Both the position numbers and the translations under genes were made by a program. Shown here in pieces: positions 15,082 to 19,430 of a stretch of 64,000 bases of DNA. The notes beneath the pieces are model-generated. The model saw only the letters and a program-made list of their open reading frames with translations. It ran no database searches and was not told the DNA's origin. Origin of the DNA: Escherichia coli (GTDB lineage Bacteria; Pseudomonadota; Gammaproteobacteria; Enterobacterales; Enterobacteriaceae); the NCBI RefSeq assembly GCF_044324875.1, contig NZ_CP172185.1; one strand, 5' to 3'. Position 1 is the first letter of the stretch. Every line of letters starts with the position of its first letter.

Positions 15082-15378
15082 GGAAGGTGCGAATAAGCAG
15101 GTCATTTCTTCCCAAGCTGACTCGCTGATTAAAATTTCGCGGATCTGGGCCGATTTTTTTCCCGCAAACACATCGAATCAGCCTATTTAGGCTATTTTTT
15201 CCACCATTTCTGGCGTTATTTCCGGTTTTTACTGAGATCTCTCCCACTGACGTATCATTTGGTCCACCCGAAACAGGTTGGCTAGGGTGAATAACATCGC
15301 CAGTTGGTTATCGTTTTTCAGCAGCCCCTTGTATCTGGCTTTCACGAAGCCGAACTGCCGCTTGATGATGCGAAACGG
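15082..15378 (-). mobile_element. IS5 remnant (terminal ~300 bp including the terminal IR), cut by IS1
   Basis: Starts with the IS5 IR ggaaggtgcgaataag. The minus strand encodes the InsH C-terminus ...[36 protein letters not shown]. It ends abruptly at the IS1 IR. Confidence 0.75.
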
Positions 15379-15454
15379 GGTAATGCTGCCAACTTACTGA
15401 TTTAGTGTATGATGGTGATTTTAAGTAAGCGACTCGTCAGAACCGTATTGATAT

Positions 15455-17026
15455 TTACTGAGAGCTCAGATCAACTTTCCAGGGCAACAGATCGCGTACC
15501 CGGTTTGCCGGCCAGTCCTGGATATGTTCAATGACGTAACGCAGCCACTTTTCTGGCTCCACATTGTTCAGACGGCATGTGCCGATCAGCGAGTACAACA
15601 CCGCCGCATGTTCACCACCGCTGTCGGAACCCGCGAACATCCAGTTTTTCCGGCCTACGGCCACTCCCCGTAAGGCGTTCTCTGCGATGTTGTTGTCGAT
15701 TTCCACCCAGCCATTACTGCAGTACACGTTCAGTGCATCCCACTGTTTCAGCAGGTATGCGAACGCTTTTGCCGTATCTGAGTGACGCGACAGTGTTTTC
15801 ATCTGTTGCTGTATCCAGTCATACAGTGACTGCATCAGTGGCGCGGCTCTGGCTTTTCTTGCCGCCAGACGCTGTTCTGCTGAACAGCCCCGGACCTCTG
15901 CCTCGATGGCATACAGTTCACCGATACGCTGCAGGGCTTCCGTGGTGATGTAGGTGGGCGCTCTTGCATGCACATCGTGGATTTTTCTCCGGGCATGAGC
16001 CATACACGCGGCTTCCGTTATTCTGCCGGATTCGTATAACGCCCGGTAACCACCGTAAGCATCGGCCTGAAGCACACCGCTGTAACCGGCCAGGTGATTT
16101 TGTGGATGGATACCTTTCCGGTCCGGACTGTACGCGAACCAGACCGCCGGGGGCATCTGTGAACCGGCGTTACGGTCATCACGGACGTAGACCCACAGCC
16201 GGGCTGTCCGGGTTTTACCGCTGCCCGGCTCCTGGACCGGGACGGGGATATCATCAGCATGGACTTTACCGGGCATCAGCACATACTGGCGCAGGACGTC
16301 ATACAGCGGCTCCAGCAGTTCAGCAACAGCACCTGTCCAGCGCCCCAGTGTGGCACGGCTCAGCTCCACTCCCTGACGACGGTATATTTCTGACTGGCGG
16401 TATAACGGCAGATGGTCTGCATATTTCCCGGTGACAACATGGGCCAGAAGCCCCGCTCCGGCATAACTGCGTGCAATGGGTTTTGAAGGTACTGGTGCCT
16501 GCACGATATGGTCGCACCGGCAACAGGCCTGTTTCGGACGTTGTGTTTCGATAACCTTAAAGGCGCTGCTGATAAGCTCCAGTTGCTCTGACACATCACA
16601 TCCCAGAGAACTGAGTTCACCACCACAGGCAGGACAGCATTCCTCTTCCGGCCGGATAACCCGGGTTTCACGGGGAAGTGAGGCCGGTAACGGTTTACGG
16701 GCTGAAGACTGGCGCAGGGCGGATGGCAGTACCGGGTCATATTGCTCACCCAGCGTTTCCGCCATTTCTTCCTGAAGTGCGCTGATTCGCTCCTGTGCTT
16801 CCTGTATCTGCCGTTCGGTTTTTGCACGAAGTTTTTCTGAGCTTTTACCGAACTGCATACGTTGCAGTTTCGCAACCAGCGCCTTCAGCCGGTTGATTTC
16901 GGAAGCATAAGCCGCCACCCGCTGTGAGAGCAGGCGGTTGTATTCAGCCATCTGGCGGATGGTGTCCTGTTGCGTCTGCAACAGTGCCCGCAGGCGGGCG
17001 TTCTCATGAGCAAGTGAGGTGTCCAT
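15455..17026 (-). CDS. tnpC: IS66-family transposase TnpC
   Basis: 523 aa with N-terminal coiled-coil/leucine zipper, a CxxC...CxxC zinc motif and the IS66 DDE core. Confidence 0.85.
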
Positions 17027-17045
17027 ATCCTCACTTTACAACGGG

Positions 17046-17393
17046 TTATATGCGGATTCCAGCGCGTTCCGTTCGTTTCGGGTGCTTCCAGTTGATACCT
17101 TCAAGAAGCATGGATAACTGAGCCGGAGTAAGGTGCACCTTGCCGTCACGGGTGACTGGCCAGACGAAGCGGCCCCGCTCCAGGCGTTTGGTGAAGAGGC
17201 ACAGTCCGTCACTGTCAGCCCACAACACTTTTATCTGGTCACCCCGGCGTCCGCGGAAGATGAACAGGTGTCCGGAGAACGGGTCATCCTTCAGGACGTT
17301 CTGAACTTTTGATGCCAGGCCGTTAAAGCCATTTCGCATATCGGTGATACCTGCAACCAGCCAGATACGCGAACCTGCAGGGAGAGATATCAT
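17046..17393 (-). CDS. tnpB: IS66-family Orf2 (TnpB)
   Basis: 115 aa starting MISLPAGSRIWLVAGITDMRNGFNGLA..., a conserved IS66 accessory protein. Confidence 0.85.
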   Translation of the reverse strand: MISLPAGSRIWLVAGITDMRNGFNGLASKVQNVLKDDPFSGHLFIFRGRRGDQIKVLWADSDGLCLFTKRLERGRFVWPVTRDGKVHLTPAQLSMLLEGINWKHPKRTERAGIRI

Positions 17394-18070
17394 CAGTGGC
17401 TGCTCCCTTTTATTTCGCGGATAAGTGTCTGTAATAACGCCGGCGTCAGTTTACCTTTAAGCCTGAGAGTTCCGGCCGGCAGAACCAGCTCACAACACAG
17501 ACTGTCGGACGGTGTATTTATCTGCTCTGGTTCCTGTGCGGGGGCCGGGATTTTATTATCCGGCTCCGGCGTTAACGTCACGGGAAGCAGTGCCGGCATA
17601 TTTTTTCCGGAAGGCAGCAGGCCACCTTTCCGGTATTGATGGCGCCAGTTGAAGAGCAGGTTATCGTTGATTCCGTTTTCCCGGGCGATCTGCGCCACAC
17701 AGGCTCCGGGCTGCAGTGACTGCTCCACTAAGGCGATTTTAAACTCATAAGGGAAGTTGGGCCGCCGGGGACGTTTTTTTACCACGGGGGCTTCGGATAT
17801 AACGGTGCTTTCAGGACGTACGACTGGTACCGTGGAAAATTGTCCGTAAAGGCAGGCATCAAGTTCCTGCTCCGACATGCCTGCGGGCAAAGGCCACGAA
17901 AGGCCAGCTCTCCGAAAGCGCACGAACATACTACAAACTGTTGATTTTGGTACACCCAGGCGACGCCCGGCCACAACCCGGGGTAAATGTTCTTCAAAGT
18001 GAAGACGTAAAGCTTCAGTGATCCAGGTCCGGTGTTTCATACGATAGTGTCCATTAAAAATGATGGACAT
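17393..18070 (-). CDS. tnpA: IS66-family Orf1 (TnpA, HTH)
   Basis: ORF of 225 aa overlapping tnpB by ATGA. The true start may be an internal Met, since IS66 Orf1 is usually shorter. Confidence 0.65.
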   Translation of the reverse strand: MSIIFNGHYRMKHRTWITEALRLHFEEHLPRVVAGRRLGVPKSTVCSMFVRFRRAGLSWPLPAGMSEQELDACLYGQFSTVPVVRPESTVISEAPVVKKRPRRPNFPYEFKIALVEQSLQPGACVAQIARENGINDNLLFNWRHQYRKGGLLPSGKNMPALLPVTLTPEPDNKIPAPAQEPEQINTPSDSLCCELVLPAGTLRLKGKLTPALLQTLIREIKGSSH

Positions 18071-18140
18071 TATTTTTGTAGAGCCGGAGGAAACAGACCA
18101 GACGGTTTAAATGAGCCGGTTACGATTTTAAGGTGCTTGC

Positions 18141-18416
18141 GTGGCTTCCATTTCCATCAGATGTCCTTCCTGCTCCGCTACTGAAGGCGTGGTGCGTAAC
18201 GGCAAAAGCACTGCCGGACATCAGCGCTATCTCTGCTCTCATTGCCGTAAAACATGGCAACTACAGTTCACTTACACCGCCTCTCAGCCCGGTACGCACC
18301 AGAAAATCATTGATATGGCCATGAATAGCGTCGGATGTCGCGCCAGTGCACGCATTATGGGCGTTGGCCTCAACACGGTTTTACGTCACTTAAAAAACTC
18401 AGGCCGCAGTCGGTAA
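18141..18416 (+). CDS. insA: IS1 InsA
   Basis: Translation [43 protein letters not shown]..., an IS1 InsA variant. Confidence 0.9.
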
Positions 18417-18790
18417 CCTCGCGCATACAACCGGGCAGTGATGTGATTGTCTGCGCTGAAATGGACGAACAGTGGGGCTACGTCGGTGCTAAATCACGTC
18501 AGCGCTGGCTGTTTTACGCGTATGACAGGATACGGAGGACGGTTGTGGCGCACGTCTTCGGTGAACGCACTCTGGCCACACTGGAGCGTCTTCTGAGCCT
18601 GCTGTCGGCCTTTGAGGTCGTGGTATGGATGACGGATGGCTGGCCGCTGTATGAATCACGCCTGAAGGGAAAGCTGCACGTTATCAGCAAGCGTTACACT
18701 CAGCGCATTGAGCGACATAATCTGAATCTGAGATCTGGCAAGGCTGGGACGGAAGTCACTGTCGTTCTCAAAATCGGTGGAGCTGCATGA
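18335..18790 (+). CDS. insB: IS1 InsB' frame (InsAB' transposase made by -1 frameshift at the A-run)
   Basis: IS1 B' reading frame; the slippery ttaaaaaactc motif at ~18388 sits in the insA/insB overlap. Confidence 0.85.
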
Positions 18791-19430
18791 CAAGGTCATC
18801 GGGCATTATCTGAACATAAAACACTATCAGTAAGTTGGAGTCATTACCAACGGTAAATATCCATAAGTGTGGGCTTGCGGAATAAATAGTTTGGTTAAAG
18901 ATAAGGTGGTTTAATACTGCTGAGTATTTTATAGGAGATATGATGTTGTTTTATAAACAAACTAAAAAACATGAAGTTTAATTGATAGGGGACAATGAAA
19001 TCTCCTTTTTAAACTCAATTGCTATGTTGGGTTTATGGGGTTGCTATAAACGGTTTTGAATAAACGCTTTACTATTCTCATGAAAACAGTGTTATGTTGT
19101 TATTTTAACAACCCCGCATTGTTTTTTGATGGGATGGGTATTAAGACTTTAGAGAAACTTTATAAATAAATATATGTATTCAATAGTGGCGAAAATAATA
19201 ACCCATCTTATTATTACATTGTGGAAGTGCTCTTTTTTATTATCGCTCATGTTTTACCTTTCTGTTAAAACATATTCTTTCGGATATGTAAAATGGTAAG
19301 AGATAGTTAATCTACGTATGCATGGGGGCGTTTCATTGCATGGCGTTATAATCTGGCTTGTATATAAAGGCACTATAAGTTTTACTCTTACAGTGCCTTT
19401 ATTTGGCCATGATTTACCCTCTACAATAAA

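Follow-up and report, generated by a model that had tools for sequence, protein, structure and literature searches.

ISCro1 inside a resident IS1 beside a truncated IS5-like element in the selC island of Escherichia coli

How did three insertion sequences (ISs) come to lie against and within one another in a single chromosomal island? The question is raised by positions 15082–18848 of a 64,000-nucleotide (nt) stretch of Escherichia coli DNA (assembly GCF_044324875.1, contig NZ_CP172185.1), the whole of which is referred to here as the window. A preliminary description saw three levels of nesting, with an IS5 cut by an IS1 and that IS1 split in turn by an IS66-family element. All of the boundaries it gave were found in the sequence, and its three element assignments are right at family level; this confirms the observation, while the interpretation is supported in part. 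We find that only ISCro1 is nested, inside IS1, while an IS5-like element is abutted and truncated on one side only. The locus is very probably the scar of successive IS activity in the selC island, in which deletions adjacent to IS1 were followed by the insertion of ISCro1. The coordinates of all features are listed in Table 1.

We identified the innermost element as a member of the IS66 family, ISCro1, which was first named in Citrobacter rodentium. It has three consecutive genes, tnpA, tnpB, and tnpC (the last for the DDE transposase), as the preliminary description had also read them, along with GTAAGCG inverted repeats (IRs) and an 8-bp duplication. Its DNA is 99.96–100% identical to RefSeq copies labelled "IS66-like element ISCro1 family", and other strains carry fully identical (100%) copies at different loci. 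The ends read GTAAGCGACTCG... and, as the reverse complement, GTAACCGGCTCA..., and form imperfect terminal IRs. The length matches the published 2699 bp for ISCro1, which is reported with an 8-bp target site duplication (PMC12115866).

The string repeated at the two borders of ISCro1 is 9 bp long (GATTTTAAG, 15417–15425 and 18124–18132). The element begins with G and IS1 also resumes with G, and for this reason the duplication had earlier been read as attttaag, 1 bp out of register. We examined ten ISCro1 copies elsewhere, all of which start with GTAAGCG and end with GGTTAC. The 8-bp duplication is perfect in eight of the ten, matches at 7/8 positions in one (L011), and is missing in one (L010). 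The ends of these copies fix the borders of the element as given in Table 1 and make GATTTTAA the true duplication. An 8-bp direct repeat is thus present as claimed, with a different sequence. The chance of an 8-bp match at fixed positions is P ~1.5e-5.

Next to this element, the host IS1 can be restored exactly. We removed 15425–18131, that is, ISCro1 and one copy of the duplication, in silico. The rejoined IS1 is identical at 763 of 763 positions to the IS1 that stands uninterrupted at this locus in avian pathogenic E. coli (APEC) strain BEN2908, and the rejoined window is 100% identical to BEN2908 across 3294 bp. The two halves therefore form one element, as had been proposed, with host sequence on both sides of ISCro1 and a duplication of host sequence at its borders. 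More broadly, the window represents the selC island (AGI-3/fos type) of BEN2908, with 99.96–100% identity across ~21 kb and differences limited to the ISCro1 positions and five small ones.

We then used 5,426 complete E. coli genomes as the comparison set. The left flank and the IS5-like stump are present in 34 complete genomes, and IS1 beside the stump is uninterrupted in both genomes inspected closely, FORC_081 and BEN2908. The junction of left flank, stump, IS1, and ISCro1 was found in 0 of the 5,426 genomes, with matches ending at window position 15425. Since BEN2908 carries the identical IS1 uninterrupted, and none of these genomes has ISCro1 there, the insertion is the latest event and is strain-specific. 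The preliminary description had also placed it last, and the homologous islands of BEN2908 and FORC_081 bear this out. On the sequence comparison, the ISCro1 insertion is a simple, recent, lineage-specific transposition into a resident IS1.

The interrupted IS1 is itself a damaged copy. Its 23-nt IRs are 87% complementary, and the rejoined element, at 763 bp, is 98.6% identical to IS1F of K-12. Members of the IS1 family are about 768 bp long, with 23-bp terminal IRs and with insA and insB′ linked by programmed frameshifting. InsA and InsB of the rejoined element match NF033558, and the element is a defective member of this family (IS1F isoform). A frameshifting 5-bp deletion (ACAAC) lies in insB near 18733; the element was therefore unable to make its own transposase and was defective before ISCro1 arrived. 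Among the strains examined, the deletion occurs only in the window, BEN2908, and SW070917, and FORC_081 and AR_0006 are without it. The ISCro1 insertion parts the left IR (IRL) of IS1 from insA.

To the left of IS1 lies a stump that the preliminary description took for the end of an IS5. Its terminal IR, GGAAGGTGCGAATAAG, begins at 15082 and spans 15082–15097. The 16-bp terminal IR of the IS5 group (GGAAGGTGCGAAYAAG) is present and, together with the C-terminus of an IS5-type DDE transposase, places the stump in the IS5 group of the IS5 family. At 15229–15378, the minus strand codes for what is left of this transposase, its last 49 amino acids (aa). Of these, the C-terminal 36 match positions 250–285 of the 285 in NCBIfam profile NF033581 (E 1.2e-7), with a score that falls short of the whole-protein cut-off owing to the small size of the remnant. 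RefSeq labels the homologous stretch in BEN2908 and FORC_081 as a partial IS5/IS1182 family transposase. An end of this kind does stand flush against IS1 at 15379. However, the stump is only 84.9% identical to IS5A of K-12 over its 297 bp, and the figure for its full-length relative in SW070917, to which the stump is 99.7% identical, is 91.1%. By the ISfinder convention, ~95% nucleotide identity defines one IS. Judged by sequence identity, the stump is thus IS5-like, a different IS of the IS5 group.

How the stump and IS1 came to meet is best seen by comparing junctions among strains. The right junction, at which IS1 is followed by AACGGTAAAT..., is identical in 329 complete genomes, including those of sequence type 131 (ST131) strains. 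The left junction, in contrast, takes at least three forms. In the window, ~899 bp of the IS5-like element are gone and the remaining 297 bp are as in BEN2908 and FORC_081. SW070917 keeps 1184 bp of this IS5-like copy and shares its outer junction; there, the copy ends with ...CAGGAACTTG against the same IS1 and is short of just 12 bp of its inner IR at the point of contact. In the ST131 strain AR_0006, the same IS1 and right flank have as their left neighbour a truncated sugar-transporter gene next to yicL, and no IS5 sequence was found at the left junction of IS1 in the region examined in ST131 strains. The junction between the left flank and the outer IR of the IS5-like element is common to the window, BEN2908, FORC_081, SW070917, and others.

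As the preliminary description had noted, no IS5 sequence follows IS1, and we found none to its right anywhere in the window. Nor is IS1 flanked by an 8–9-bp duplication of IS5 sequence. To speak of "three-level nesting" is thus to overstate the case, as IS1 is not nested in the IS5-like element. Adjacent deletions promoted by IS1, in which one end stays fixed at an IS1 terminus, are well established from the classical gal/chl deletion series. Three left junctions combined with one constant right junction form the pattern expected of leftward deletions from the left end of IS1. Compared at the sequence level, such deletions from the IRL would fit better than insertion into IS5 followed by loss on the right side, and they offer the simpler reading.

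The history that we propose has three steps. In the oldest, an IS1F-like IS1 would have stood at the left edge of a module comprising ykgR and genes for a family 31 glycoside hydrolase (GH31), a major facilitator superfamily (MFS) transporter, and a LacI regulator, with the IS5-like element located 3′ of the fos cluster. Comparison of the strains suggests that rearrangements anchored at the left end of IS1 then took out DNA leftward, most likely by IS1-mediated adjacent deletion, that is, intramolecular transposition. The products would have kept either 1184 bp of the IS5-like element (SW070917) or its last 297 bp (BEN2908, FORC_081, and the window), and in ST131, the deletion would extend to the chromosomal transporter gene. 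IS1 would also have gained its 5-bp insB deletion during this step. In the last step, which the comparison shows directly, an active ISCro1 copy transposed into IS1 nt 39–46 and duplicated GATTTTAA in the window lineage only.

Several points weigh against this history. The second step rests on three comparison states, with which intramolecular transposition and recombination between IS1 copies are not separable. The insB deletion groups the window with BEN2908 and SW070917, whereas the 297-bp truncation groups it with BEN2908 and FORC_081, and these conflicting markers point to some recombination or gene conversion in the history of the locus. The whole IS1 lies between two direct copies of the 5-bp string AACGG (15374–15378 and 18849–18853). 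We rejected this repeat as an IS1 target duplication, which is usually 8–9 bp long, and treat it as a chance repeat because it is shorter than that, is absent from the other left-junction variants, and is followed by no IS5 sequence. Finally, the structure rests on an assembly without read-level support.

Other routes to the junction between the stump and IS1 can be weighed against these data. In the model of the preliminary description, IS1 entered an intact IS5, and the DNA to the right of IS1 was lost afterwards in an IS-mediated deletion. This would explain why IS5 sequence ends exactly at the first base of the IRL, and deletions to either side of IS1 are known products of its activity. 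However, the right junction is the same in all 329 genomes, among them ST131 strains without IS5 at the left junction in the region examined, and SW070917 shows a second contact point between this IS5-like copy and this IS1, 12 bp from the inner end of the former. The model would also require deletions on both sides of IS1, and an 8–9-bp duplication of IS5 sequence around IS1 is missing. We consider it quite improbable. Homologous recombination between direct-repeat IS1 copies, one inside the IS5 and one at the ykgR junction, with loss of the DNA between them, would end in the structure that an adjacent deletion also gives, namely a hybrid IS1 free of a flanking duplication, with the right junction fixed and the left one new. 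It would allow mosaic IS1 alleles and might in this way explain the conflict between markers. Nevertheless, a separate IS1 insertion would be required for each of the three left junctions, and no strain with two IS1 copies at the locus was found among those examined, which leaves this route rather unlikely.

The insertion of ISCro1 has rivals of its own. A ready-made IS1::ISCro1 composite might have transposed by way of its IS1 ends or taken the place of the resident IS1 through homologous recombination or gene conversion. Possible donors do exist, since plasmid pEC4-2 has ISCro1 at the same IS1 site and two enterotoxigenic E. coli (ETEC) chromosomes have it no more than 2 bp away. Against this, both IS1 halves in the window match the resident BEN2908 allele at 100%, down to the 5-bp deletion and an A at nt 242 of the rejoined element, whereas the IS1 alleles of the other composites are only 90–95% identical and have different duplications (GTTTTTGA and TTTTGAGG). 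The outer IS1 junctions are also unaltered, and a ready-made composite is very improbable as the source. IS1 and ISCro1 are both multicopy elements with thousands of matches, and such repeats can be joined wrongly, which raises the prospect of an assembly artefact. A mis-join, however, would not yield a perfect 8-bp duplication at the canonical ends of ISCro1, and it would not account for two IS1 parts whose rejoining restores the resident allele exactly. The probability of an artefact appears close to negligible, and we retain direct transposition of ISCro1 into the resident IS1 following deletions from the left end of that IS1.

BEN2908 has an ISCro1-like copy of its own in the island. That copy (L018, reverse complement, 1551–4227) is ~2677 bp long with 98.6% identity and is annotated as pseudogenes, and its many gaps may be assembly errors. 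It is flanked by the duplication GGACGAGG at a site equivalent to window positions 3109–3116, where the window has a clean, empty site. The position of ISCro1 in the island thus differs between two very close strains. We also considered whether ISCro1 moved from this site into IS1 and rejected the idea, given 16 mismatches and 20 gaps in the BEN2908 copy and the clean empty site here.

One point alone extends beyond the window: ISCro1 has repeatedly used IS1 nt 39–48. We verified 11 independent events of ISCro1 in IS1. Four of these have the duplication at IS1 nt 39–46 or 41–48, in the window (IS1F-like allele, GATTTTAA), in plasmid pEC4-2 (IS1A, GTTTTTGA), in the TW10598 chromosome (TTTTGAGG), and in the FMU073332 chromosome (TTTTGAGG, with ISCro1 in the opposite orientation). 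The remaining seven are scattered across IS1 nt 165–715. With the index case excluded, 3 of 10 events lie within 2 bp of the index site (P ~3e-5 under uniform targeting), and a scan-type simulation gave 5.5e-5, in a small sample of 11 events obtained with a search design that sees events only within ~600 bp of the IS1 left end.

Coverage of the whole region reached at least 80% in 318 genomes, which is not a count of IS1::ISCro1 junctions; we rejected that use because many of the matches are adjacent, un-nested IS1 and ISCro1 (L005 and L010–L013). A right-junction query returned no same-site composites, and among the matches listed, the sole full-coverage one was a two-piece match. For matches with query starts at 28–34, flank similarity in L016 and L017 was dismissed as only a chance AT-rich resemblance. 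An exact-pattern scan for IS1 nt 15–34, a 0–30-bp gap, and an ISCro1 end gave 0 matches in GTDB species representatives and 0 in JGI metagenomes, and the hot spot is therefore without independent confirmation outside E. coli genomes. A literature search found no paper describing a preference of ISCro1 for IS1 nt 39–48.

We regard it as possible, though doubtful, that ISCro1 truly prefers a target just inside the left IR of IS1 (nt 39–48), in both orientations and in divergent alleles. Target choice could follow a local DNA feature, for which the T-tract GTTTTTGAGG or a bend made by integration host factor (IHF), a protein that binds IS1 ends, are candidates. To our knowledge, target choice in the IS66 family is poorly characterised. 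If the preference is real, one IS would be systematically disabling another by cutting its end and promoter from the transposase gene. The reverse case also occurs. An IS1F-like IS1 cuts the left end of an ISCro1-like element after 72 bp in Shigella boydii plasmid pBS512_211 (L015, 4001–4119), and the same arrangement is found in 11 other Shigella virulence plasmids. IS1 and ISCro1 thus insert into each other in both directions.

Table 1. Features of the locus, with duplication coordinates for the ISCro1 events at IS1 nt 39–48 (window coordinates unless a locus is named)
Feature	Coordinates	Strand	Remarks
Kinase gene	13839–14801		Last gene of the presumed fos cluster
Left flank, 280-bp spacer	14802–15081		3′ of kinase gene
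IS5-like right-end fragment	15082–15378	-	297 bp, flush against IS1
IS1 left part, nt 1–46	15379–15424	+	IRL 15379–15401; left GATTTTAA copy 15417–15424
ISCro1, intact, 2699 bp	15425–18123	-	GTAAGCG...GGTTAC ends
tnpC, intact	15455–17026	-	NF033517, 477.9 bits (cut-off 180)
tnpB, intact	17046–17393	-	NF033819, 128.9 bits (cut-off 50)
tnpA, intact	17393–18070	-	NF038385, 295.8 bits (cut-off 150)
IS1 right part, nt 39–763	18124–18848	+	Right GATTTTAA copy 18124–18131; right IR (IRR) 18826–18848
insA, intact	18141–18416		Within right IS1 part
AT-rich right flank	18849–19430	.	31.6% GC
ykgR, intact, 33 aa	19149–19250	-	Small membrane protein YkgR by RefSeq annotation
Duplications of the four events	Window 15417–15424/18124–18131; L004 3039–3046; L003 3041–3048; L019 4541–4548

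The DNA to the right of IS1 had been described as AT-rich and non-coding. It is AT-rich, but it holds the small gene ykgR. The layout gives no reason to expect an effect of the ISCro1 insertion on neighbouring genes, as the kinase gene is directed towards the ISs, and so are ykgR and the GH31 gene. A tRNA-Sec gene (27796–27890) adjoins an open reading frame (26312–27496) that is called an integrase after the annotation of the homologous BEN2908 region. According to PMC12928451, which cites Chouikha et al. 2006, and, for the fos locus, PMC3325963, the AGI-3 island at selC of BEN2908 carries the fos locus. A second IS cluster lies towards the left of the window, at ~3326–4967; by transfer of coordinates from BEN2908, it consists of the IS3-family element ISEc27 and a partial integrase-core fragment.

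The elements, the island, and the mechanisms are all already known, and the locus implies nothing biologically new. The structure reflects ordinary genome wear and tear and is best used as a lineage marker. As a clean marker that arose in a single event, the junction of ISCro1 in IS1 sets apart one sub-lineage among BEN2908-like E. coli with the AGI-3/fos island, and the series of left junctions of IS1 gives a relative order for the trimming of the selC island in different clones.

Compared with known systems, the inserted element shows nothing that sets it apart from the RefSeq-labelled ISCro1 copies, and only its insertion site is new among the complete genomes compared. The interrupted IS1 resembles IS1F of K-12 in its 23-bp IRs, its intact insA, and its identity over the full element, and differs from it in being split by ISCro1 and in measuring 763 rather than 768 bp as a result of the ACAAC deletion. 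The stump shares its terminal IR GGAAGGTGCGAATAAG with IS5 (K-12 IS5A) and ISKpn26, to which its transposase C-terminus is homologous, and is unlike IS5A in its lower identity and in the short length that is left. The gene order of the island is as in AGI-3 of BEN2908, with genes for LacI, MFS, a family 32 glycoside hydrolase (GH32), an OmpG-type porin, GH32, a porin, and the kinase, then the IS5 stump, IS1, ykgR, GH31, MFS, and LacI, and lastly a tetratricopeptide repeat (TPR) protein, the integrase, and tRNA-Sec. BEN2908 itself differs in having IS1 intact and its ISCro1-like copy elsewhere. Like classical IS1-promoted adjacent deletions, the left-junction series has one end fixed at IS1 and the other varying, with IS1 kept and no flanking duplication; unlike them, the deletions here are deduced from natural variants only.

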